Sequence record: PZ445473.1
Source: a phage
DNA: 64,000 nucleotides
Direction: 5' to 3' (one strand)
Under the pieces are notes generated by a model, which was not told the DNA's origin, did no database searches, and worked only from the letters and a program-made list of their open reading frames with translations. The position numbers and the translations under genes are program-made. This document shows, one piece after another, positions 1,497-62,409 of the stretch. The first letter of the stretch is position 1; the number at the start of each line of letters is the position of its first letter.

Positions 1497-2558
1497 ATGG
1501 CTAATCCAACTTTATTTGTATCGTATGACCAGAATGGTAAAAAACTTTCTTTTGCTAACTGGATTTCTGTTCTGTCCCCTCAGGATACTCCGTTCGTATC
1601 TATGACCGGTAAAGAGTCTATCAACCAGACTATCTTTAGCTGGCAGACCGATGCATTGGCAAGCGTTGACGCTAATAACGCACACGTTGAAGGTTCTCGT
1701 GCGGTTGATGGTGAAATGCAACCTACCGTAATCAAATCCAACGTTACTCAGATTCTGCGTAAGGTTGTTAAAGTTTCTGATACCGCTAACACCACCGCTA
1801 ACTACGGTCGTGGTCGTGAACTGATGTATCAGCTGGAGAAGAAAGGTAAAGAGATCAAGCGTGACCTCGAGAAAATCCTTCTGTCCGGTCAGGCTCGTAC
1901 CGATGTTCTGGCTGACCAATACCTGACTAACTCCGCAACTGATCCTTCAGCTGTTGGTCTGAACGACACCCACGCAGCTCGTAAGACTGGTGCTTTCCAG
2001 TTCCTGTGTGCACACAACGGTGTTTCTGCTGGTGTTGTTAAGAAAGAAAATGGCCCTGCTGATCCGGATACTGGTGCAGTAACTGTTAAAGTTGCACAGA
2101 ATGCTTCTAACCCGACCACTAACGTTGGTTTTGATGAAGCTGATATCTTTGATATGACTCTGCAACTGTACACTGCTGGTTCTGAAGCAGATATCATCAT
2201 GATCAACCCTGCTCATGCTAAGATCTTCGCTGGTCTGCAAGAAAACACTCAGGGTTCACGTAAGCGTATCTTTGAGAACACCAAGCAGTTCATCTACGAA
2301 GTTAACAGCATCACTGACCCGCTGGGCCAGAACTACAAAATCATCGTTAACCGTTGGATGCCTACCGATGCAGTTTACTTCTTCCGTAGCGCTGACTGGA
2401 CTCAGATGGTCCTGCGTGCTCCGAAACGTACTGAACTGGCAAAAGATGGTTCTTATGAGAAGTGGATGATTGAAATGGAAGTTGGTCTGCGTCACCGCAA
2501 CCCTTATGCTTCCGGAGTTCTGTTCACTGCTGCGGGAAAGTTGGATCCGCAACAGTAG
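1497..2558 (+). CDS. major capsid protein (short form)
   Basis: 353 aa ORF after scaffold gene; AGGAG RBS at 1482-1486; followed by an in-register -1 frame Ig-like extension and a terminator. Confidence 0.65.
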   Translation: MANPTLFVSYDQNGKKLSFANWISVLSPQDTPFVSMTGKESINQTIFSWQTDALASVDANNAHVEGSRAVDGEMQPTVIKSNVTQILRKVVKVSDTANTTANYGRGRELMYQLEKKGKEIKRDLEKILLSGQARTDVLADQYLTNSATDPSAVGLNDTHAARKTGAFQFLCAHNGVSAGVVKKENGPADPDTGAVTVKVAQNASNPTTNVGFDEADIFDMTLQLYTAGSEADIIMINPAHAKIFAGLQENTQGSRKRIFENTKQFIYEVNSITDPLGQNYKIIVNRWMPTDAVYFFRSADWTQMVLRAPKRTELAKDGSYEKWMIEMEVGLRHRNPYASGVLFTAAGKLDPQQ

Positions 2559-3177: not shown

Positions 3178-3930
3178 ATGGCAATGCCAGATGTTCAATA
3201 CCCCATCAATACCTATGGGTGGCTAAAGAAGGCCGTGGCCCTCTGGGCAGATAGGGACGATGACGAATTTGTTAATCAAATTCCAAACTTTATTAACTTT
3301 GCAGAGAAAGAGATTTATCGTAACTTACGTATCCCTCCTCTGGAAAAAGAAGTGTATTTAGATATTAAAGATGGAGTAGCTTACATTCCTCCTGATTACC
3401 TAGAAGCTCAATGGATGATGAGAGCCAAAGATGGTACAATCTTCCAAGTAACCTCTCCTGAAGAGATTAGCTATCGTAGACAGCATGGAACAATTAATCC
3501 ATCTCATTGGAATAACCAACCTGTTAACTTTGCTCGTTTCGGTAGTCGTTTCATTTTCTACCCTAGCATCGAAGCAGATACTCCGTACTACCCTGATGAT
3601 GGAAGCCCTTTGATTCCAGCAGAAAACTCAGTAATTCTTAGCTATTATGCAGACCCACCGGAATTCCACGAAGATGAAGATACTAGTGCAATCCTCACTA
3701 TCGCACCAGAACTTCTTCTGTATTTCACTCTGCGTCATGCTTGCTTATTTGTTCAAGATGATAACGGAGTTCAGAAATGGTCAGCATTAGGAAAAGCTAT
3801 CCTTGATGAAATGGTAGAACAGAATAAGAAACAAGAGTACTCAGGTTCACCTATCGCAATTCCGAATAACATGACTCGACTTCAGAGCAGCTTGCCTGAT
3901 ATTTATGGTATTCGTACTTCTCGTGTATAA
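3178..3930 (+). CDS. hypothetical virion protein
   Basis: 250 aa ORF with AGGAGG RBS; located between capsid and tail fiber genes. Confidence 0.5.
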   Translation: MAMPDVQYPINTYGWLKKAVALWADRDDDEFVNQIPNFINFAEKEIYRNLRIPPLEKEVYLDIKDGVAYIPPDYLEAQWMMRAKDGTIFQVTSPEEISYRRQHGTINPSHWNNQPVNFARFGSRFIFYPSIEADTPYYPDDGSPLIPAENSVILSYYADPPEFHEDEDTSAILTIAPELLLYFTLRHACLFVQDDNGVQKWSALGKAILDEMVEQNKKQEYSGSPIAIPNNMTRLQSSLPDIYGIRTSRV

Positions 3931-3939
3931 GGAGATAAT

Positions 3940-6588
3940 ATGATCGTTTATAATAACCAAGCACCTGATGCAGTGAATAACGTTGGGCAGTTTGGTGCTA
4001 CTGAAGGTTCTATCGGAGCTTACAAGCAAGCAGCAGAATATGCAGCTGATTCTAAGTATTGGTCACTGTTGGCAGAGGCTAAGTTTGGTACAGTTGATGA
4101 CTTGATTGCTCAGGTTGAGATTCTATACAAACAAGGTGTTCTATTAAAAGAAGATATTGAAGACTTAAAACAAGACTTCATTGCACAAGACTCTCGTTTG
4201 ATGAACCTCATTGCTCAAACTAACGCAGCTGTAGCTGATGCAAATAATGCAGTTGCTCTGATTAATCAGAAACTTGTAGAAGTTCAGAATCAACTCGACG
4301 TTCTGTTGGGAATGTCTGTTGACGTAACTACACTTCCTCCGGGAACTCCGGCTACTGGCTCTTTTAATCCGAACACTGGTGTAATCTCTCTGGGTATCCC
4401 AGAAGGTGATCCCGGAAAGGATGGTTCTGTTACTGACCTATCTGCTGCTCCTACCGGTACACCGGAGCTGGGGGACATCGGTTTCTATGTTGACAAAGAT
4501 GATAACATTGTTCACAAAACAACTCTCGAAGATATTGCAAACCTGATCCCATCTGTTCGTTCTGTTTCAGTTAACGATGGCCCTGCGCTTGATGGTGAAG
4601 TTGCTCTTACACTCAACAAAGAGACGGTAGGTCTTGGGAACGTTTTGAACGTGGCTCAGTACAGCCGCCAAGAGATTAATGATAAGTTTGACAAAACAAC
4701 TAAAACCTACCAATCGAAAGCCGAAGCTGATGCGGATGCTCAATACCGACAGGTAGGAGAAAAGGTTTTGGTGTGGGACTCAACGAAGTATGAATTCTAT
4801 ACTGTTGCAGCGAATAAAACCCTTACTCCGGTTAAAACAGAAGGTCGTATCCTAACTGTTAACTCCCGTGCTCCTGATTCAACTGGTAACATCGATATCG
4901 TAATCCCAACAGGAAACCCATCTTTGTATTTAGGGGAGATGGTAATGTTCCCTTATGACCCAGCTAAAGCTGTCTCCTATCCGGGCATTCTTCCTGCGGA
5001 CGGTCGTTTGGTGTCAAAAGAATCTGCTTTGGATTTAGGCCCATCCCTTATCAGTGGACAACTCCCTGTTGTTTCTGAAACAGAGTGGCAAGCTGGTGCT
5101 AAGCAGTATTTCTCTTGGGGTAAATTAGCCGATGGCATCACTGATGCAGATTCTACTAACTATATCAATATCCGTCTTCCTGATTGGACAGGCGGTGAGG
5201 CTATTCGATCCCCTGATTCTGTAAAAGACAGTGCATATAAAGGTAATGTTCAAAGTCAGGTCCCTTATGTAGTCACTGTAAATAACCAAGCTCCTGATGA
5301 GATTACAGGTAACGTCAATATCTCCAGATCTATCTTAGGTGCTGCTGCTGCTGGTGCAAACTCTGATATAACATCTATGACTGGACTTACGACAGCGCTG
5401 TCTGTTAATCAGGGTGGAACAGGGGCGAAGAATGCCAGTGACGCCAGATCTAACTTAGGACTTGGTTCTGTTTCTACATTAAACAATATTCCAGTAGAAA
5501 ATGGTGGTACAGGTGCTAGTACTGCTGATGGTGCTAAGTCTAATTTAGGCGTAGACAGAATAGAACAAAGCTCTTGGGAGACTAAGATCTTTTCTCCGAA
5601 TAGAGAAACCTACATGTTTGTCGATAATAACGGATGGGGGTGTTACCGTACCACATCTGGATTGGCTGGTGATGTAGCTTTGTCAGTTGAAAGAGGGGGC
5701 ACCGGAGCAACAAATGCTGTAGAGGCTAGATCTAACTTGGGTTTAGGTTCTGTTGCCACTCTTAGTAATGTACCAATCGCTAGTGGTGGTACAGGTGCTA
5801 GTGATGCTGCCGGTGCAAGGTTTAATTTGGGGTTGGGAAATGTTTCTACTCTGGACAACGTACCAGTCGCTAGTGGTGGTACAGGTGCTAGTGATGCTGC
5901 CGGTGCCCGAAGCAACCTCGGAGCGCTGAGTAACACTCCAGCAAACACAGGTGCAGGTAATACTGGTGCGCGAGTCCAACATGCCACCGGAAGAGGTCTG
6001 TTTACTTTAGACATGTTTAACTGCTACTGGTATATGCAGCCAGAGGATACTAACTTCTGGGTTGCCCACGGTGTGTCATATGCAGGGCCTAATGGCGAAG
6101 CCTCAGAGTATGGTCGTATATCTTACGCAATAAAGATTGCAGATGGAACAACAAAATATGTCCATTGTCTTACAAACAAAAACACCATCATTGATACAGG
6201 CGGATTTATCAAAGCGGCATCTCCGGTAGTTAACATTTATGCCAACGGTCGGTATGAAACGAACGATGAGTCTGAGGGGGTTAGTGTCATCCGGCAGGGT
6301 ATTGGTGAATATCTGATTACCGGTTGCCTCGGTCTTAACTCTGATGCAAGATGGGGTGGAGTGGATGGGGGGTTTGAAATCCCAACAGATCGCAACAAGC
6401 AACCTAGGATTTGGCTGGACTATGAGGTTAAAGAAGATGGTTCTATTTTAGTTAAAACCTATCACAGAACTCACCCAACCTCTCCAGTTTTTGCTAGAAA
6501 CGAGATAGAAGGTTTTTCTGATGGGGACCCTATTGATATTCCAAGTGATGCTTTTATCTCAGTTCGTGTAGAGATGCCAGCTGAGTAA
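3940..6588 (+). CDS. tail fiber protein with glycine-rich phage tail-fiber repeats
   Basis: 882 aa; repeated GGTGA..ARSNLGLGSV.TL.NVP.ASGGTGASDAAGAR units matching the phage tail fibre repeat pattern. Confidence 0.65.
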   Translation: MIVYNNQAPDAVNNVGQFGATEGSIGAYKQAAEYAADSKYWSLLAEAKFGTVDDLIAQVEILYKQGVLLKEDIEDLKQDFIAQDSRLMNLIAQTNAAVADANNAVALINQKLVEVQNQLDVLLGMSVDVTTLPPGTPATGSFNPNTGVISLGIPEGDPGKDGSVTDLSAAPTGTPELGDIGFYVDKDDNIVHKTTLEDIANLIPSVRSVSVNDGPALDGEVALTLNKETVGLGNVLNVAQYSRQEINDKFDKTTKTYQSKAEADADAQYRQVGEKVLVWDSTKYEFYTVAANKTLTPVKTEGRILTVNSRAPDSTGNIDIVIPTGNPSLYLGEMVMFPYDPAKAVSYPGILPADGRLVSKESALDLGPSLISGQLPVVSETEWQAGAKQYFSWGKLADGITDADSTNYINIRLPDWTGGEAIRSPDSVKDSAYKGNVQSQVPYVVTVNNQAPDEITGNVNISRSILGAAAAGANSDITSMTGLTTALSVNQGGTGAKNASDARSNLGLGSVSTLNNIPVENGGTGASTADGAKSNLGVDRIEQSSWETKIFSPNRETYMFVDNNGWGCYRTTSGLAGDVALSVERGGTGATNAVEARSNLGLGSVATLSNVPIASGGTGASDAAGARFNLGLGNVSTLDNVPVASGGTGASDAAGARSNLGALSNTPANTGAGNTGARVQHATGRGLFTLDMFNCYWYMQPEDTNFWVAHGVSYAGPNGEASEYGRISYAIKIADGTTKYVHCLTNKNTIIDTGGFIKAASPVVNIYANGRYETNDESEGVSVIRQGIGEYLITGCLGLNSDARWGGVDGGFEIPTDRNKQPRIWLDYEVKEDGSILVKTYHRTHPTSPVFARNEIEGFSDGDPIDIPSDAFISVRVEMPAE
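5401..5925 (+). repeat. tandem coding repeats within tail fiber gene, including an exact 40-bp direct repeat
   Basis: TCGCTAGTGGTGGTACAGGTGCTAGTGATGCTGCCGGTGC occurs identically at 5777-5816 and 5867-5906. Confidence 0.8.
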
Positions 6589-20130: not shown

Positions 20131-23100
20131 ATGGCTAACATTAAACCGTGGGAAGAAGCTTCCAAAGCTCCTGCGTATCTGAATGCCTCTCCAGAGCGTC
20201 AAGCTCAAATGAGAGAACAATATAAGGCAGCAGGTGGCTTTATTCCTGAGGAACAACCAGTAGCACAACCACAACAAGAAGAACGTGGTGTTATAGGTGA
20301 GTTTGCTCAAGGTGTGTCAAATGCTCTTCAGTCCGGCAGTGCTAATATCTCTGCTAACCTTTCTAGAGGTATTGGCGGTTTAGTTGAGATTGGTGAAGAC
20401 CTAGTTGGAGCACAAACCGGCTATGGTAAACGTATGCAAGAGAACGCCCAGAATCTTCTTAAAGAACGTATGGATAAGATCGAGGATGGGATTGGTAAGA
20501 CAGCTGGGCAGTATGCTGGGGTGGTTGCTGATGTAGGTTTGACGGTTGCTAACCCAGCTTTGGCTGCTGCTGTCATTGCTGGACGTGAAGCAGGTCGTGC
20601 TTATGCTGACCAAACCCCAGAAGAGGGGGAAGACAAGTCAGTGTTAGATGCTGCTCTTGTTGGTGGTGCTAACTTTGTAGCTCAGAAGATTCTTCCGGGT
20701 GCCGTTGGTACAGCTGAATCCACACTTGGTCGTATCGGTCAGAACGTTGCTAGTAACGCAGTGGCTGGTGCTAAGGGTGGTGCTATTGTTGGTGCTGCTG
20801 AAGCTCAAAACAAATATGGGGATGATAACAATCTAGCTAGGACATTAGAAGGTGTTATCGAAGAAGGGGGCATAGGTGCTGCATTCGGTGGTGCAGTTGG
20901 TGGTGTTCATGGTTTGATTAGCCGTCCGGATTCTGCTGTCTTCAAGAATACTCCAGAATATGCAAAGACTGACATTGCTGCTGACGATGAGCTGATTCGT
21001 AGTGCTAAGACTGTTGATGAACTGAAAGAAGCCTACTCTAAAGCTGAAACTGCTAACGCCGCTTCCGCTCTTAATCTTCTGGATGAGAATGGATTCCGTA
21101 TTACTGATGCTGTTGCTTTAGATTCTCCTGCTGCTCAGCGTATTCTTAATACAGACCAAGCCAGTGCTGAGAAAGCTGCTTCTGCTCAGAAAGAGCATTC
21201 TAACATTCCGGGCCTCAATCCTTTGGCTCCTCCTGCTAAGACTCGTGGTAAAGCATTCGCTGATAACGAGCACAACCAGAAGAAAGCTGTCGCTATGAAA
21301 GATGCAATGGCTGACTACACCAAGGATAACACGAAAGCTCTTACAGATGTTCTAGATAACCTAGACCGTGAATTAACTGCTTACCGAGCTGCTGATGATT
21401 TTACTGGCAATCCACTTGATGTCAAGAATCGCACACAAGCTGACCGTGACTTCGTTGATGCTTATAAGACTTTCTATAATGAAGCAAATCGATTCAAAGC
21501 TCGTGATGGTGAAGACTTTAACAACTTTGTAGAGAAAGCTACTGAGCTACGGAAGATGGCTGATAACGTTTCTCCAGAGATGAAGAAAGCTATTAGTGGG
21601 TTGAAGAAACTGAAAGGTATGCCTGAAGGTTTTAACCCTATTCAAGATGCTTATACTCTGAACAATGCAGCTAAGTTCATGAGCAACCAAGACCGTGGTT
21701 GGACTTCCCTGACCGATGATGGATTCCGTGAGGCTTCTTCTCCTAGTCTGGTTATGAACACACTCGGTGCTGCTAAGTATGCTCTGAATCGCTTCTCTTC
21801 TCAGCGTGCTCGCTCTCAACGTGTTAAGCAACAAGAAGCTAACAGCGAAGCTATCCGCTCTCTGGCTCGTGGTGATTTGGAAGTTGCTCGTGCTAAATCT
21901 ACTGCTGATGAAGCTCGTGCTAAAATGGAAGAAGAACCAGTTGTTGATGACATTAAATTTAAGACGCAAAATGACGTGGAAACCGAACCGGTTCGGGAGC
22001 CTTCTTCTAGTACTGTGACGGAAGAAAATCTTCCTTCTTCCACTCCTCAAGAAGCCCCTCTTACAGCTCGCGATTTAGTTGCTCAAAGACGTGCAGTTAA
22101 GCAGGCAGAACAGCGTCGTGCTCAAGAAGAGGCCGCACAGGCTCCAGAACCCACTGTAGAGGAACCAACAGTCAAAGCCGAGCCATTACCTGCCCGTGCT
22201 CCTAAAGCTCCTAAGGAGTCTATACAGGACGTTAAACCGGCAAGTGGTGTAGAACGTTTAGCTGCCATGTCTAGTGCTGCTCGTCAGGCTACTATAGATC
22301 GTGCAGAACGTTTTGCTCGTTCTCTGTACTCTCAGACTGCTAAGGCTAAGGCCACTGCTGAAAACTTCTTGGCTTACAAGGGAAGTTATAGGGAGTTGAT
22401 GCGTCGGATTCGTCAGGAAGATAATGCTATCAACACTGAGCGTCATGAAGAGATGGCTCGTAATCAGCTAGCTTCTCAGCAAGGTATTGCTACTGCTAAG
22501 AACAACACTGTACGAACTAACTTTGCTGAATGGGTTAAGGAACGTGGTCTGCCAGAAGACATTGCTACTAAGGCATTACGTGCTGAAGAGAAGGGTTTAG
22601 ATGGGAACGTGACTAACTTAGATAGTCTGAAACGTCGTGCTGAAAGGTTGTATCAGAAGCAGCGTGAGGACGAGTTTGATAGACTGTATCAACAGGCTCT
22701 GGAAGAGAATAAAGCTTTTGATAAGAAGAATGCTCCTAAACTGGCTGACCAGAAGAAAGAGCTTCAATCTGAGATTGACACTTTGATTGATTCAGAACCT
22801 TTACGTCCTGCTCAGAAAGATGCTATGCGTAAACTAATGAATGACTTTGTAGATGAGAAGTTTAAATCTTCAGAGAAGGCTGGTAGGGAAGAAGCTTTGG
22901 AAGTAGGTCAGATGAAGGATATTTGGGATGGGTTTATTAACACCTATAACAGAGAAGTGAATGCCTTCAACAAAGCTAACAAGAACTCTCAGTATGAGGC
23001 TGCTGCTAAACACTTGCAGGCTCGTGAGGAGCGTCTTATCTCTTTACGTAACAGAGCAGAAGCTCGTGCTCAAGCGAAAGCTACAGCAGAAGCTGAACGT

Positions 23101-30384: not shown

Positions 30385-32229
30385 TTAGTGTGTATGCATC
30401 CAGTTTAACCCAATCTGACAATCAGAAGCCAGAGGACATTCCATGTTCAAGTACTCACCAGCCTTCTTAACACAAAGCTCGGTGTACTCTTTGAGTTTCT
30501 GTACATCATTACGGTTCACTGAGAACTGGCCCTCATCGTGCATATCAATTACCTTAGCACAACGAACTCCATCTTTCTCAATCCACTTGTTAAGGAACAT
30601 CATAGCATATTTCATAACAACAGCACCAGCACATTGCAGGAGTGTGTTAAGGGCTTTATGAACCATAACCTTACCAGTGGCATCCCGTCTCATTGTAATC
30701 TTACGACCATCAACGCCAATCAAATACCCTTGAGCAGCTTTCTCTGTCATACGATCAATGAGGATTGCAATACATGGGTTCTCTGCCAAGAAGCGTGCTC
30801 GCATCACTGAACCTTCGTCAGCTCCACCACCTACGATTGAACCAAGCTTAGCATCACCAGCACCATAGTTAAACGCGTAGATAAACGTTTTAGCGTTGTC
30901 ACGAGTAGGAAGACCAGCAAGTTTCTGGTTGTGGGAGTGGATATCACCTTCAAGAAGGATATCACGATACATAATAGCAGAAGCTAAACCACGTTCTGCC
31001 AGAGCTTTCTTAGCTGGATTATTCTCTTCGATTGCTTCAGCAAGCATATCCCTACACTCTTTAATGAGGTAGTGAGCGAGCATACGAAGTTCAAGTCCAG
31101 AACCATCATACCCTAAGAATACTTCTTTACCAGCGGGTATGTAATATTTGTAAGCACCTACAGGCTTATCTTTCTTCCCCGGCTTACCTTTCTCGTAAAT
31201 TACGTTAGTACCTTTTCGTATATAACAACCATCAGGAACAACGTTAGTAATAACGAAAGGACGAGAGTGATCACTGTCTGAATTATAGTCAGACTCAAAC
31301 AAACTGCGACACTCATGACCAAACAAACCACGGGAGGGAATATTAACCACGATACGATGTTTGAATCGAAAAGTTGGCGTAGCGCAGCTGTTAGCTTCTG
31401 CCGAAAGTTTACCATCTTCGCGTTCCTTTGCTATGAGTCCACTGATAAGACCTAGCCTGTGAGCCGCTACAACGCGCCTCTTAAGCAAACTTCCAACACT
31501 CCCTAGCTCGCCCCCTAACCCTTCTTCAAGAGTCTCCTCGAGGTTTGTAGGAGCTGTAGGCCACTTGTTTGAGGTAGCTAGTGCTATCTTAATCTCATCA
31601 AACGTGATAGGTCTACTTCGGTTAGGGTTTAAACCTAAACCAAACACATAAGCCTTCATATAGTTCTTAGTCTTAAACCTAAAATGCTTCTCTAAGAACC
31701 TCCTAATATCTGCGTCAACCATCTCGGCTGTCTGCTTCTGTTTAGCATTACCTCGCATCCAAGCTGAATACCATGCTTGGTATGTCCCATACTTTCGAAT
31801 ATCTTTCTTGATTTCAAAAGTATTCCAAGGTTTCTTTGATACGTTAAACTCTGGAGGAAGAAAACCCTCATCCATAAGGGCTTCTTTAACTCGTGCATCT
31901 TTCGATGGGTCAAAGTCTACATACTCAACACAGGTGAATGCTCCACCAATGTCTTCTCTCTTAAGGCCAACTCTATCACAGTAGGCTTGAGGCCACTTCT
32001 GTAAAGCTCCAGACTTCTTAAATGGCTTCATATAAGTAGAGCCATCTAATCTCATCTTAGGTAAGAGAGGGATCAGTTCTTTGTCGATATTAACAATAAT
32101 CTCTTTAAGGAGGTGAACATACCACCGAGCATTTCTTCGGTTGAAACTCACTCCGTGCTTCGCTTGCTTAGAGATTATATCAGCGACAGTCATCTCTGTC
32201 AAAAATGGGAGAGCGTCCGGGTTGCTCAC
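30385..32229 (-). CDS. DNA polymerase, family A (polymerase domain only)
   Basis: Motif A LGYDGSGLELRMLAHY, motif B RDNAKTFIYAFNYGAGDAKLG, motif C VIDMHDEGQF. Confidence 0.85.
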   Translation of the reverse strand: MSNPDALPFLTEMTVADIISKQAKHGVSFNRRNARWYVHLLKEIIVNIDKELIPLLPKMRLDGSTYMKPFKKSGALQKWPQAYCDRVGLKREDIGGAFTCVEYVDFDPSKDARVKEALMDEGFLPPEFNVSKKPWNTFEIKKDIRKYGTYQAWYSAWMRGNAKQKQTAEMVDADIRRFLEKHFRFKTKNYMKAYVFGLGLNPNRSRPITFDEIKIALATSNKWPTAPTNLEETLEEGLGGELGSVGSLLKRRVVAAHRLGLISGLIAKEREDGKLSAEANSCATPTFRFKHRIVVNIPSRGLFGHECRSLFESDYNSDSDHSRPFVITNVVPDGCYIRKGTNVIYEKGKPGKKDKPVGAYKYYIPAGKEVFLGYDGSGLELRMLAHYLIKECRDMLAEAIEENNPAKKALAERGLASAIMYRDILLEGDIHSHNQKLAGLPTRDNAKTFIYAFNYGAGDAKLGSIVGGGADEGSVMRARFLAENPCIAILIDRMTEKAAQGYLIGVDGRKITMRRDATGKVMVHKALNTLLQCAGAVVMKYAMMFLNKWIEKDGVRCAKVIDMHDEGQFSVNRNDVQKLKEYTELCVKKAGEYLNMECPLASDCQIGLNWMHTH

Positions 32230-54056: not shown

Positions 54057-54131
54057 TGGCGTTCCCTCGTGGAATCGAACCACGAATAAGAGCTTAGAAG
54101 GCTCCAGTTATATCCGTTTAACTAAGGGAAC
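54057..54131 (-). tRNA. tRNA-Arg (anticodon UCU)
   Basis: Hand-folded cloverleaf: acceptor GTTCCCT/AGGGAAC, D stem GTTA/TAAC, anticodon stem GGAGC/GCTCT, loop CTTCTAA, T arm CGTGG-TTCGATT-CCACG, discriminator G, CCA. Confidence 0.8.
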
Positions 54132-58411: not shown

Positions 58412-58480
58412 TATCTTATTCCTTTCAGTGATAAGTTATATCGGGCAAGCCCATCAAGGCGATAGGCTTGAACAAATAAC

Positions 58481-58690
58481 TCAACCAAGTAAACCAAATG
58501 ATTTCCAACTACGCAGTAAGATCGTACCATCATCCATAGTTACGCATAATTTTAGTAGTCGCTTACTGGTACTGCTCACCGTTGTGATTCGTCCGGTTGT
58601 GCATTTACCTTTATTGCTATAAAGATATATAACACGATGGCCTAACAAACGAGATGGCGCTTTCTTAAATTCTGAGATGTTAGTGATCAT
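58481..58690 (-). CDS. hypothetical small protein
   Basis: 69-aa ORF abutting the next gene. Confidence 0.35.
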   Translation of the reverse strand: MITNISEFKKAPSRLLGHRVIYLYSNKGKCTTGRITTVSSTSKRLLKLCVTMDDGTILLRSWKSFGLLG

Positions 58691-58908
58691 TATCCATATA
58701 CCTTAACATGATTGATTCGACGTGAATGATGATAAGAAGACTCAACAGCCATTGCCTTTAATTCTTCTTTTCGTTGGTTAGTGTGTACAATATCCCAATG
58801 ATTATGATCGTGTTGGCGCTGTAATATCTTACTACATTTGCGATGGTTTCCCGTGCTGCGACGTTTCTCACAAATAGGACACTTGCCAAAATTATTACTG
58901 AATATCAT
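58690..58908 (-). CDS. small Cys/His-rich protein
   Basis: GKCPICEKRR...HDHNHWD. Confidence 0.35.
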   Translation of the reverse strand: MIFSNNFGKCPICEKRRSTGNHRKCSKILQRQHDHNHWDIVHTNQRKEELKAMAVESSYHHSRRINHVKVYG

Positions 58909-59132
58909 TTTCTCAATCCTAACTTTCTTAAGACACGGCCTAACGTTGTTTCTTGGGTGATAATATACCTGACCGCTTCACGTTCCAACGTTTCAATCTT
59001 CATTGGCGACGGATACCATTCACCGGTAAGCATACACCTATACTCAACGCCATACTTTTTAGATAGGCGGTAATGTTGACCGTTGATAAGGTTCCTATAA
59101 ATCGTGGTATGCGTCGTTAACATAATCGTCAC
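58905..59132 (-). CDS. hypothetical small protein
   Basis: 75-aa ORF with overlapping stop/start. Confidence 0.35.
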   Translation of the reverse strand: MTIMLTTHTTIYRNLINGQHYRLSKKYGVEYRCMLTGEWYPSPMKIETLEREAVRYIITQETTLGRVLRKLGLRK

Positions 59133-59235
59133 CTTTGATTAGATTCTTTGATTAGTACACTGAATCAATGCACTGATAAAAGAAAAGGCGCTACCCGTTA
59201 AAGATAGCGCCTCATGTTTATTTAGATTGTCTTAC

Positions 59236-60144
59236 TTATGCCGCCTGACGTGCCGCCATAATTTCAGCCGCTTTACGCAATACTTCTTCCTCTTCTGCTT
59301 TCGCCGCTTGTTCGGTACGGGTAGCAACCGTTGAAGAGATACGACCGCGCAGACTTTCTAACTTCTCTTGCATAGCTGCGATGGTCTTTTCCATTTCATC
59401 AGCGTATGAATCCAGTGATTCCAATTCCTTGCTTGATGCGTTCATCAGATAATCATCCGAGATCGCTACCGTTGAGGCCGTCACTTTCTTGATGAGTGAG
59501 TCGAATGACTTCTTAACCTTGCCGACTTCTTCACTTAAGGCAATAGTGTTATCACTGGTAGCGCCGTTGCGCTCATCGGCCAACAATTTTGCTTCAATAC
59601 GGATTGCATTCAAGCGTTCAACTAAAGCGTAAATATCCTGATTAAAATCTTCCTTGTTTTTCGCCGGGATTTGCAGATGGGCCGCCACGTTGTCATTGCA
59701 ACCTTTATAAAAGTTAGGATTATCCACTTCAATTGCACGACCTAAAGCAAAATTCTCGAAAGCATTCGACCAGCGAGCGCGGTTTTGTTCCATTTTGGCC
59801 TTAATTTGCGCTTCTTTCGCATCTTCTTTCGCTTTCGCCTCGCCTTCCAGATTAATCCATTTTTTACGACCGTTCGCCGCCTCGGTGTTAAACTTGATTG
59901 GAGTTAAGAAAGTAATTGCAGTGGCAATAACATCCATATCGCGGAAACGTTCAGTTAACAGAAAATCGACCGCCGCTTGCAATACATCTAACTTTTTACC
60001 GTTGCTGCGAAAGTGCTGCAAATGCCCTAAAAGGAAGTTAGAAACATCTTGTTTAATCGCCGCGTTATTTTTGCGGATGTTGTTTGCCAGCGCGTTAAAA
60101 CCGGATTCTTTTACCAGATTAAAAACTTTAGCCATGATATTCAC
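59236..60144 (-). CDS. hypothetical helical protein
   Basis: 302-aa ORF; GC- and CpG-rich by eye. Confidence 0.45.
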   Translation of the reverse strand: MNIMAKVFNLVKESGFNALANNIRKNNAAIKQDVSNFLLGHLQHFRSNGKKLDVLQAAVDFLLTERFRDMDVIATAITFLTPIKFNTEAANGRKKWINLEGEAKAKEDAKEAQIKAKMEQNRARWSNAFENFALGRAIEVDNPNFYKGCNDNVAAHLQIPAKNKEDFNQDIYALVERLNAIRIEAKLLADERNGATSDNTIALSEEVGKVKKSFDSLIKKVTASTVAISDDYLMNASSKELESLDSYADEMEKTIAAMQEKLESLRGRISSTVATRTEQAAKAEEEEVLRKAAEIMAARQAA

Positions 60145-61062
60145 CTTTCAATTATAAGGGCACTATTGCCCCGCTCGCTATGAGCTTTTAAGCCATTATT
60201 GACTTAGCTATAGTCACTCACTAATAAATAACTATAGGTAAGCGGAGCGGTCTTATCAGGAGTTAACCTTGCCGCTCCCTTATCCGTGGTCTTTCATCTG
60301 GTGGATTCAATTAATCGCTATAAAGAAAGCCGATTTGCCAGCGATGATCAATCACCACAATAAGGCTAGTGTGTCCGACCCTAATTAGTTACAATAATGC
60401 AACCGTCGGCAATATCGTTTACTTTGCTTTCGCTCCCGCCTATCCTTTTATATCAGCTCTTTATCGCTAGTCATCGCCCACTACGGGATACTATTGCGAA
60501 AAAGTCACTAACCGCCTATTATTCCGGCGTTTTATATCTTTCAACGGGTTTACTACATTACCCGACTATGTACTTTCATCATCAGACGAATCTCAAGCCG
60601 TTCGCATCGTAAACGTTCACACTGACACCTTATTGTTAAATAGCAATTCGCTACTCTTTAACCGTTCGCCGCCGCTCTCAATTGAGCGTTAATTCGTCGG
60701 GATTGCCTACCCTGATCAACTTCTTTCACCGTAGCGCCTTTTTAGCTAGGCCGCCGCTACCCATTAACCGTGGGCGATTAGTTTTAGCCTTGCGTGCACT
60801 CGATGAATCCGCTTATCAGTGGTGACGTTTCCAGTTAAGGGATTGTAAAGCTGTTTACCCTGATAATTTAGGGAGCTTTACGCCGTTTTATCTGGTATGT
60901 TTTCCGATGGTCATTATCATCCAACATATGCAACCGATATAGGGGAACGTTTAAATTATTAAAGAGCGGTAAATCTGTCAGTGTGCTTTCTCACACTACG
61001 CAACTGTTAGCCGTTGTGTCGCTTTTTCACTGAAGCGGTGATTTGCTTAGTGACTTGTGCTC

Positions 61063-61091
61063 ATTATGAACCATGTTGTTTTAGTTGTCAA
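61063..61091 (-). promoter_or_regulatory. sigma-70-type promoter (minus strand): -35 TTGACA, 17-bp spacer, -10 CATAAT
   Basis: Plus TGTCAA 61086-61091 and ATTATG 61063-61068; A-rich tract upstream on minus strand. Confidence 0.5.
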
Positions 61092-61372
61092 TCACTTTTT
61101 TAATCTTTTTTCGTCGCTCCCCTTATTGGGAGGATATATCAATCAGCTATATTTGATTGAAGATTAAGCGATGAATGCTTAAACTTATGATTCATATTTT
61201 TAAAGAGCGGTGGAGCATTTACAGCTTAACACGTCGTGTTAGCTTGTCAATCTCTTTTTTTATCGTCTTCTTTGATTCTCTTCCCTTATCTCGCTTGATT
61301 CTATGCGAAAGGGCAAGACGATAATTTTTTAAAGAGCGAGATGTTTTAAGTCATCGCTGACCTTGTACACTC

Positions 61373-61400
61373 ATTATAGGTTAGGCTTTTCAGTTGTCAA
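61373..61400 (-). promoter_or_regulatory. sigma-70-type promoter (minus strand): -35 TTGACA, 16-bp spacer, -10 TATAAT
   Basis: Plus TGTCAA 61395-61400 and ATTATA 61373-61378; A-rich tract upstream on minus strand. Confidence 0.55.
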
Positions 61401-62052
61401 ATACTTTTTCAAGTATTTTTTCACTTTCTAGCCTGATTTTTAAAGAGCGGGGCAATTTCTTGCCTTGTATGTTTTACATCGTACCCGATGGAAATGAGTA
61501 TACGCGAGCCTTTAGAAAGTGCAATAGGGGAAAGCAAATTATTTTAAACTTTTTCACTGTAGGGAAGATAGAAGAGCGGGCTGACGTGGTACACCATAGA
61601 AAACGGCTTGTAAAGCGATAAGAAACGGCCTTGAACGCGCTACAGTGAGCTAAAAGGGAGTAAGGAATACAACCCCCTTAGAAAAGAGAAAAGCCTCATG
61701 GTGAGGCTTATGGGAATGATTTAAAGCATCAGATAGATTATGACCGCAGAACAGACCACGGGAAACGTGCCAGATAATGCGGTAGTAATATTCCACTTAA
61801 ATAATCATCAACTCATAAAAGAAAAGAATAAAAGAAACGCTGAAAAAGAAAAGAATAAAAGAAATAATCATCCACTTTATTAATATATACATCATTATTG
61901 CACTCATAATTATCACCATTGAAACTATTATCAACGTAACTATGGGGATGGCGATAGTTGCTATCCGGTATTAATAGCCTCGATATAATCAAGCCTTTAC
62001 TAGTTCGTTATCAGTGCTAGCCTTTCCCATACTCTTTAAGGGGGCACTAAAT

Positions 62053-62122
62053 AAACGGGTATTAAATGTATAGGATGGTATACACGGGGCAATAACTGCA
62101 CGGGATAGGGCACGGGAAAAGT
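62053..62122. repeat. clustered ACGGG-core repeats
   Basis: AAACGGGTA, ACACGGGGCA, GCACGGGATA, GCACGGGAAAA within 70 bp; TACACGGG recurs at about 62483 and 62622. Confidence 0.4.
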
Positions 62123-62256
62123 GGAACGTTGAAAAAGAAGGTAAAGGCATTGCCAATATCCCTTTTTTAAATGAGGACTCCCCCTTTTTAACAATTCGCC
62201 GCGGAGTGCCTAGCCCCACTCGGTCAAATCAGAATTTTAAACTCTTATATATAAGG

Positions 62257-62409
62257 ATGAGTATGAATCTGGACACTAAAGAGTTCATTGAGATTGCAAT
62301 AGAAAACAACTTAAAGAAAGTATCAAATCCCTCTCTTCCAGATGGTGAACGGGTAGAAGCAGTCTCTTTAGTATTAATGCTAACTAAGGCTTTACGGGAG
62401 ATGGAATGA
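62257..62409 (+). CDS. hypothetical small protein (first gene of the rightward arm)
   Basis: ATG at 62257 or 62263 after AAGGA; track start 62206 has no RBS. Confidence 0.4.
   Translation: MSMNLDTKEFIEIAIENNLKKVSNPSLPDGERVEAVSLVLMLTKALREME

Follow-up and report, generated by a model that had tools for sequence, protein, structure and literature searches.

A probable rRNA operon-like promoter and BoxA array ahead of a large structured RNA in the early region of Escherichia phage Bas92

Escherichia phage JacquesWildberger_Bas92 (PQ850610.1) is a phiEco32-like podovirus of the Gordonclarkvirinae, in the Kuravirus clade with 67-69 kb genomes. A 64,000-nucleotide stretch of phage DNA, sequence record PZ445473.1 (the window), is a 100% match to this genome except for one 27-bp repeat unit. 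Between the last minus-strand gene and the first plus-strand gene of the window lies a gap of about 2.1 kb (60145-62263), which an earlier note, made from the letters alone, had described as a single control region. The gap is a composite of three parts: a promoter/BoxA array (61063-61524), an RNA of ~0.9 kb (61056 to ~60150), and terminal DNA (61681-62263). It is probably the front of the main leftward early unit, built like an E. coli rRNA operon and fused to terminal DNA in the circular record. The BoxA cassette and the large RNA appear to be new for these phages, and the RNA seems to constitute a new family.

The gap is gene-free, as had been claimed. No minus-strand open reading frame (ORF) of at least 30 aa occurs in 60145-61420, the other parts hold short unconserved ORFs only, and PQ850610.1 carries no annotated feature there. 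The start of the last minus-strand gene, given earlier as 60144, had to be corrected: the true start is ATG 60135, with a ribosome-binding site (RBS) at 60142-60149, and not GTG 60144. From 60145 to ~61745 (~1.6 kb) the sequence is present, at 74-89% identity, in every one of the 98 Gordonclarkvirinae records in the phage collection. In these records the phi32_124 homologue (gp124) is always directly downstream in the minus-strand sense and the block is almost always unannotated; in phiEco32 it corresponds to the 1.9 kb that separate genes 124 and 125.

Four sigma70-type promoters read leftward through the array (matches to the consensus hexamers are given out of 12):

61497-61524, minus strand: P0, TTGCAC-16-TATACT, weaker (8/12), A/T-rich tract upstream
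61373-61400, minus strand: P1, TTGACA-16-TATAAT (12/12), A-tracts upstream, predicted start ~61366
61223-61250, minus strand: P2, TTGACA-16-TAAGCT, weak -10 box, A-tract upstream
61063-61091, minus strand: P3, TTGACA-17-CATAAT (11/12), A-tract AAAAAAGTG upstream, predicted start ~61056

P1 and P3, which the earlier note had already picked out together with their A-rich upstream tracts, are two of just four sites in the window that reach at least 11/12, and their hexamers are invariant in an alignment of 17 relatives. The other two near-consensus sites are at 32202 (minus strand, TTGACA-17-TATAAT, 12/12) and 21425 (minus strand, TTGACA-16-TAAAAT, 11/12). The third -35 box that it had listed, TTGACA at 61250-61245, is real and pairs with the weak -10 of P2 (TAAGCT, 61228-61223), a hexamer that reads TAGAAT in relatives of the SU7 clade. 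In phiEco32, SU10, E20-1 and EP335, P0 is replaced by TTGACA-16-TAATAT with a different hairpin and BoxA. The number of promoter-like sites in the region, 8 against 8.4 by chance, shows no excess; what carries weight is how good, how clustered and how conserved the four sites are. Hexamers 16 or 17 bp apart and A-tracts 5' of all four suggest sigma70 promoters with an upstream (UP) element. Tandem promoters as such are already known for SU10 and phiEco32: for SU10, the counterparts of P1, P2 and P3 have been given as predicted sigma70 early promoters of the "spacer" between CDS120 and CDS121, "like phiEco32". Lineage-specific insertions also occur in the array: KBNP1711, SGF2 and TH34 have a block of ~140 nt behind a TTAACA-type promoter, and Bas93 has an additional promoter-BoxA module.

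A TTTAAAGAGCGG box had been reported to recur every 110-130 bp in the gap, with no role assigned to it. On the transcribed strand it reads GCTCTTTAA(A/T)A, in its longer form CCGCTCTTTAA(A/T)AAT. The recurrence holds, with four copies (60959, 61200, 61329 and 61440) that occur nowhere else in the window, but the spacing is not uniform (241, 129 and 111 bp) and a further copy at ~61571 is degenerate. A role can now be proposed, as the box fits perfectly the gamma-proteobacterial BoxA consensus GYTCTTTAANA (Baniulyte et al.), which has perfect minus-strand matches at 60957, 61198, 61327 and 61438, all inside 60957-61448. Judged by its sequence, the box is BoxA, the type of NusB/S10 site found in rrn operons and in lambda nut. 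The whole window has five consensus matches where 0.59 are expected, and none of 100 shuffles reached five. The fifth match (GTTCTTTAAGA, 20457-20467, minus strand) is far from the early region and is probably due to chance, since 0.59 are expected per window. All 17 relatives have 3-5 BoxA matches, on one strand and at the equivalent location. The BoxA sites and the adjoining hairpins are, in the direction of transcription:

61567-61578, minus strand: degenerate BoxA-like remnant, CGCTCTTCTATC, which fails the consensus
61451-61464, minus strand: BoxB-like hairpin GGCAA-GAAA-TTGCC, directly abutting BoxA1
61438-61448, minus strand: BoxA1, GCTCTTTAAAA, following P0
61350-61361, minus strand: BoxB-like hairpin GTCA-GCGA-TGAC, upstream of BoxA2; GNRA loop, GUGA in the SU7 clade
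61327-61337, minus strand: BoxA2, GCTCTTTAAAA, following P1
61258-61324, minus strand: 67-nt hairpin with 19 pairs, between BoxA2 and P2
61198-61208, minus strand: BoxA3, GCTCTTTAAAA, ~10 nt past the predicted P2 start and followed by hairpins; conserved
60957-60967, minus strand: BoxA4, GCTCTTTAATA, three hairpins after P3; invariant in 17 phages

Each BoxA is ~10-100 nt 3' of the predicted start of a sigma70-type promoter, and hairpins stand 5' of BoxA1, BoxA2 and BoxA4, the last of these with a 6-nt AGAAAG loop. BoxA4 falls within the longest invariant stretch of the region, AGATTTACCGCTCTTTAA (60976-60959). Several relatives carry GCTCTTTAACAATTTA at BoxA4, which is 16 nt identical to the E. 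coli rrnB leader; Bas92 matches at 15 of the 16. In the rrnB leader itself, fetched for comparison, the boxB hairpin is followed by ACT and then by GCTCTTTAACAATTTATCA. Promoter-BoxA modules have been exchanged, duplicated or replaced among lineages (P0 of phiEco32 and SU10, the extra module of Bas93, the GUGA loop of the SU7 clade), yet the order promoter-hairpin-BoxA is kept, which argues for a selected function and not merely an inherited sequence.

The 67-nt hairpin is near-invariant in the 17 phages, above its surroundings, and shows one compensatory change of G:C to A:U (6 vs 9 sequences). It could be an RNA component of the antitermination signal, or else a site in the DNA to which an activator of P2 binds. 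An exact 22-mer, ACCGCTCTTTAACAATTTAAAC, was also encountered at 1679-1700 (minus strand) of an unrelated, GC-richer phage-like contig, Ga0315903_10028116 (JGI metagenome), where two tRNA-like fragments precede it and small genes lie downstream. The find is a hint that other phages, too, make use of BoxA of the rrn type.

The hairpin and BoxA pairs might instead be lambda-type nut sites, needing a phage N-like protein that binds GNRA hairpins. In keeping with this, BoxA1 and BoxA2 each adjoin a GNRA hairpin with a stem of 4-5 bp, clades that differ in the loop (GCGA vs GUGA) still conform to GNRA, and for many of the small early proteins no function is known. The order of the elements, however, is hairpin then BoxA as in rrn; in lambda nut BoxA comes first and boxB second. 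BoxA3 lacks a hairpin, a non-exhaustive search among neighbouring early proteins turned up no N-like family, and the promoters must act before any phage protein exists. Dependence on an N-like protein is thus improbable. Still less credence is given to the BoxA copies being a sponge that titrates NusB/S10 away from the host rrn operons for host shut-off. Four BoxA sites per longest transcript and strong promoters would suit a sponge, but each BoxA is just 3' of its own promoter, as expected for cis action, and the 0.9-kb fold would be left unexplained. Moreover, a short lytic cycle that profits from impaired ribosome biogenesis has no precedent known to us.

Downstream of P3 the sequence is occupied by the predicted RNA, laid out as three 5' hairpins and BoxA4, two domains separated by a hairpin, and a 3' series of hairpins:

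60150-61056, minus strand: large structured non-coding RNA (ncRNA) or leader, ~0.9 kb, from the predicted P3 start to the RBS of the phi32_124 homologue
60955-60657, minus strand: domain I
60656-60638, minus strand: hairpin
60636-60357, minus strand: domain II
60356-60157, minus strand: 3' hairpin series
59236-60135, minus strand: phi32_124 homologue (gp124), phrog_13018, the first early gene 3' of the RNA

The earlier note had allowed that the 60.2-60.9 kb part might hold an ncRNA, and this is now strongly supported by covariation, strand asymmetry and lack of codon periodicity. The alignment comprised 17 phages at 73-98% pairwise identity, from the predicted P3 start (61056) to the gp124 start codon. 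RNAalifold predicted 242 pairs in 38 helices, with compensatory double changes in 76 pairs and with two or more covarying pairs in at least 18 helices. In the alignment 99.0% of the cells are paired, vs 92.4% in column shuffles (0/500 reach 99.0%). The 76 pairs with a compensatory change compare with 39 in the column shuffles and with 6-8 when the 3' partners are slid by 1-3 columns; the covariation score is 0.270, and 0.04-0.07 with slid partners. In nine sequences that played no part in deriving the structure, pairing amounts to 97.5-99.6%; they contribute 32 novel pair states, of which 23 are still standard pairs. Unpaired positions are 46% A, like known large functional RNAs.

Coding was sought in the same block. 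Variable columns are spread evenly over the three phases (0.41/0.40/0.43, p=0.72), flat in every 150-column window, whereas gene 124 shows the pattern of a coding sequence (0.26/0.17/0.78, p=1e-59). No ORF in the block is conserved across relatives. The block thus combines a conserved structure backed by compensatory changes with a non-coding nature, as is generic for structured functional ncRNAs. Mean pairwise identity is 85.6% in the block vs 82.9% in the adjacent gene 124. A decayed gene, the other occupant that the note had offered, is excluded by the lack of codon periodicity and of a conserved ORF, and the conserved protein-coding frame in relatives that it had named as refuting evidence was looked for and not found. 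Some records annotate 5-10 tiny ORFs here, and NJ01 a "cathepsin L-like cysteine proteinase", but with no ORF conserved across relatives, no codon periodicity in any 150-column window and a block more conserved than the adjacent gene, it is hardly conceivable that the region is a decayed gene or a set of small genes. The genes annotated in this block in CHD5UKE1 (3202-4792 of the piece analysed), pEC-N1203-2Af.1 and NJ01 look like over-annotation for want of a conserved ORF or codon periodicity. A protein-coding gene or pseudogene was rejected as a candidate, there being neither a conserved ORF nor a 3-nt periodicity of substitutions.

Conservation of the block could also reflect a DNA element, either a transcription-activated origin (of the T7 phi1.1A/B or ColE1 RNA II type) or a packaging or ejection signal. 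The block is 0.8-2 kb from the right physical end of Bas92, strong promoters lie upstream of it, and the cumulative GC skew has its minimum at ~60.8 kb. The skew minimum, however, coincides with the switch in gene orientation, and the phiEco32 block lies 3-5 kb away from the genome end. Owing to 415 G·U cells, the mirror structure on the plus strand is only 89.2% paired vs 99.0% on the minus strand, and the minimum free energy z-score is -5.8 for minus and -4.3 for plus. Helix-keeping compensatory changes and this 10-point asymmetry point to selection on a folded minus-sense RNA and not on duplex DNA, so that a DNA element is quite improbable.

Less easily set aside, though still unlikely, is a cis-acting 5' leader only, which stabilizes the early mRNA and/or gates translation of gp124 and has no role in trans. 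Variants would be protection from RNase E by a 5' structure, or sites cut by RNase III as in the early mRNA of T7. The RNA runs straight on into the gp124 RBS, with no strong conserved terminator in the way. A long-range pairing is predicted between AUUUACC beside BoxA4 and GGUGAAU in the gp124 RBS, with which GGUAAAU of TH34 and TH43 is also compatible, and BoxA-dependent repression of translation is known for suhB. Against a pure leader, 38 conserved helices in 900 nt and A-rich loops are far beyond the needs of known leaders, and the RBS pairing lacks covariation (helix 3, 0 compensatory pairs).

The ~0.9-kb RNA is here taken to be a selected product, the first made by the phage. A stable RNA or ribonucleoprotein (RNP) that acts in takeover or defence evasion and doubles as the 5' leader of the early mRNA is weakly preferred over a pure leader. 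A more specific proposal, which is tentative and which we would not bet on at even odds, is a new class of large ornate RNA (~0.9 kb, ~38 helices) of the Gordonclarkvirinae, produced from an rRNA-operon mimic and acting in trans as the first effector, ahead of all phage proteins. Such an RNA could be a ribozyme, the scaffold of an RNP, or a decoy that puts a host factor or defence system out of action.

Searches for homologues gave members of one subfamily. Scans of Rfam 15 at E-values up to 1 and up to 10 returned noise only (best 12-18 bits, E 0.9-6.5, far under the gathering scores). A blastn search of 60145-61530 against 5,426 complete E. coli genomes found no match, so that the RNA does not come from host rRNA, its leader or a prophage. 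Blastn against the phage database yielded 98 records, all Escherichia/Shigella Gordonclarkvirinae, and tblastn with gp124 the identical set of 98 genomes. A motif scan of IMG/VR gave 11 loci, five of them true and all ~86-87% identical. The BoxA4 motif was found at 12 metagenome loci: eight are Kuravirus-like at 85-91% identity, two have the motif at a contig edge, and the remaining two are freshwater loci without an RNA match, one of which was inspected and is unrelated. Since no distant member appeared in any of these blastn, IMG/VR, metagenome and tblastn searches, the covariation comes from a single subfamily. In the literature on these phages, the primary phiEco32 papers (Savalia 2008; Pavlova 2012) lying outside the coverage, nothing was found on BoxA, on antitermination or on a structured RNA.

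The distantly related group of Salmonella phage 7-11 also has an ORF-free stretch of ~1.05 kb (NC_015938, 88864-89916), bounded by the first early gene, gp151, and the right end. In three phages of the group a core of ~450 nt is near-identical. The fold z-score is -2.7, and BoxA is absent, none having been found in the right-end 7.9 kb of 7-11. Based on the three sequences, this stretch may be an analogous leader RNA.

In the E. coli rrn operon, tandem P1/P2 with an UP element are followed by boxB, boxA and boxC and then by 16S rRNA. With this leader the phage unit shares strong sigma70 promoters in tandem, with A/T-rich sequence upstream, a hairpin just before BoxA (save at BoxA3), BoxA with its 3' flank (the 16 nt of GCTCTTTAACAATTTA in several relatives), a long, highly structured untranslated RNA downstream, and possibly a pairing of the leader-trailer type. 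It differs in several respects: rrn has two promoters (P1/P2) sharing one BoxA, where the phage has four promoter-BoxA units; no boxC and no evident GC-rich discriminator are seen in the phage; and the phage RNA is unrelated to rRNA and is followed on the transcript by protein-coding genes.

Other known systems resemble it in part. Lambda nut also has BoxA beside a small GNRA-type hairpin on a phage early transcript, just 3' of the early promoters. Lambda boxA is CGCTCTTA, whereas the phage BoxA is the exact rrn consensus in four copies, the order of elements is reversed, and Bas92 is virulent. T7 likewise places tandem strong host-type promoters (A1/A2/A3) near the genome end that heads the early region, in a podovirus with short terminal repeats; in Bas92 every promoter is paired with a BoxA of its own, and the first gene comes after a structured RNA of 0.9 kb. 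GOLLD, ROOL, OLE and raiA are of the same size class (0.5-0.9 kb), with many covarying helices and A-rich loops, and GOLLD and ROOL are often phage-associated. The Bas92 RNA, by contrast, matches no Rfam family, is confined to phages of E. coli and Shigella, and is an operon leader with defined promoters. HK022 put is a structured RNA just 3' of early promoters with potential cis action on polymerase, and the 67-nt hairpin (61324-61258) is of similar size, with no known sequence similarity; put works without Nus factors, whereas the Bas92 array has canonical BoxA sites. The BoxA sites of CRISPR arrays and suhB (Stringer 2020; Baniulyte 2017) lie at the start of a long untranslated transcript or near an RBS and work with host factors only. 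In contrast to CRISPR arrays, the downstream RNA in Bas92 is a single large fold and not a repeat array, and the setting is a phage genome.

The following sequence of events can be proposed. Host sigma70 polymerase would start at the tandem promoters P0-P3, which carry UP-like A-tracts. The nascent BoxA would then recruit NusB-S10 and, with NusA, NusG and SuhB, assemble an rrn-type antitermination complex. The fast, modified polymerase could cross the 0.9-1.4 kb of untranslated RNA in a Rho-resistant state, and the complex might also aid co-transcriptional folding of the RNA, as at rRNA. Transcription would run on into the early genes, gp124 first. The Nus complex has been described as a folding aid at rRNA, and BoxA is placed upstream of long untranslated RNAs such as CRISPR arrays. 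Capture of host RNA polymerase, the purpose that the earlier note had suggested, would be only part of the likely logic, for the design appears to copy the rrn operon in promoters, BoxA and long structured RNA.

Several points weigh against this rRNA operon-like arrangement and the folded RNA within it. No boxC-like GU-rich UGUGUGGG occurs 3' of any BoxA copy; in rrn, boxB and boxC are not known to be essential. BoxA3 is ~10 nt from its predicted start and is without a hairpin. With 24.5% G and 19% C, the RNA is G-rich and C-poor and may resist Rho alone, which would make antitermination less needed and leave the folding role in place. Nus factors may, by context, repress translation or promote Rho termination, as at suhB. 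The diversity of the alignment is modest (73-98% identity, one subfamily), and its covariation consequently reflects few independent events. The structure was picked by a covariation-aware predictor; the slid and out-of-sample controls argue against circularity. Finally, the placement of the starts, the existence of a separate RNA species and the binding of Nus factors are all inferred from the sequence, as are Rho resistance and the processing and function of the RNA.

Large, intricately folded RNAs of unassigned function are rare, and most are in organisms that are hard to work with. The present phages plate on E. coli K-12 (BASEL collection), so that deletion, compensatory mutagenesis, pull-downs and cryo-electron microscopy are directly feasible. 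If the proposed arrangement is correct, a virulent phage exploits the N-independent rrn antitermination and folding machinery of its host through four BoxA sites. The authors of the 7-11 study left open the processivity of sigma70-driven early transcription in that related phage; the BoxA units would offer an answer for phiEco32-like phages. The system would also be a natural one for asking what the Nus complex does on long structured RNAs. Meanwhile, ~100 deposited genomes leave the block unannotated or filled with spurious small ORFs.

The remainder of the gap consists of terminal DNA:

61681-61709, minus strand: intrinsic terminator, AAGCCTCACCATGAGGCTT followed by a T-run; conserved
61741-62018: right-end unique DNA, homologous to the phiEco32 right end
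62019-62211: equivalent of a 193-bp direct terminal repeat, aligning to both ends of NC_010324 (phiEco32)
62212-62262, plus strand: left-end leader and RBS of the first plus-strand gene, annotated ATG 62263

In relatives the terminator closes the rightmost early operon (phiEco32 genes 128-125), an operon absent from Bas92. A direct terminal repeat has been described for the phiEco32-like group (PMC9965538). Its alignment suggests that the physical ends of Bas92 lie within 62019-62211, in single copy after circularization of the record. In the virion the leftward early unit would thus be at the right end and the plus-strand genes at the left, the two being adjacent only in the circularized record or in concatemers. 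Because the gap appears to include the physical genome ends, the picture of one divergent control region is partly an artefact of the circularized record: the tandem early promoters of the earlier description stand, but ~550 bp are terminator, right-end DNA, terminal repeat and left end.

The CpG richness noted for the 60.2-60.9 kb part is real, with an observed/expected ratio of 1.40 against a window mean of 0.71 (standard deviation 0.23; top 2%). A ratio of 1.3-1.5 extends over 58450-61250, the earliest-transcribed ~3 kb, coding early genes included, and the rest of the genome is CpG-depleted. As this zone takes in coding early genes, the enrichment is not specific to the gap. Searches of gp124 and the neighbouring early genes against PHROGs and Pfam assigned no function. 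A search of the gap for tRNA and tmRNA (transfer-messenger RNA) found none, the sole tRNA of the window being tRNA-Arg(TCT) at 54057-54131 (minus strand).

Several small features were seen in the terminal DNA. A 27-bp tandem unit, AAAAGAAAAGAATAAAAGAAACGCTGA, at 61817-61870 is present in two copies in the window vs three in PQ850610.1, which is the sole difference found between the two over 60145-62300. Motifs of the CACGGG(A/G)AA type occur once in the right-end unique DNA (61757-61769) and three times in the terminal-repeat equivalent (62084-62123); these may be terminase or end-processing sites. A promoter core of the phage sigma factor gp36, AATGTATA, is found at 62065-62072 (plus strand), inside the terminal repeat and facing the left-end genes. 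The window has 7 matches vs 2.7 expected, and phiEco32 has AATGAATA where Bas92 has the gp36-type motif.

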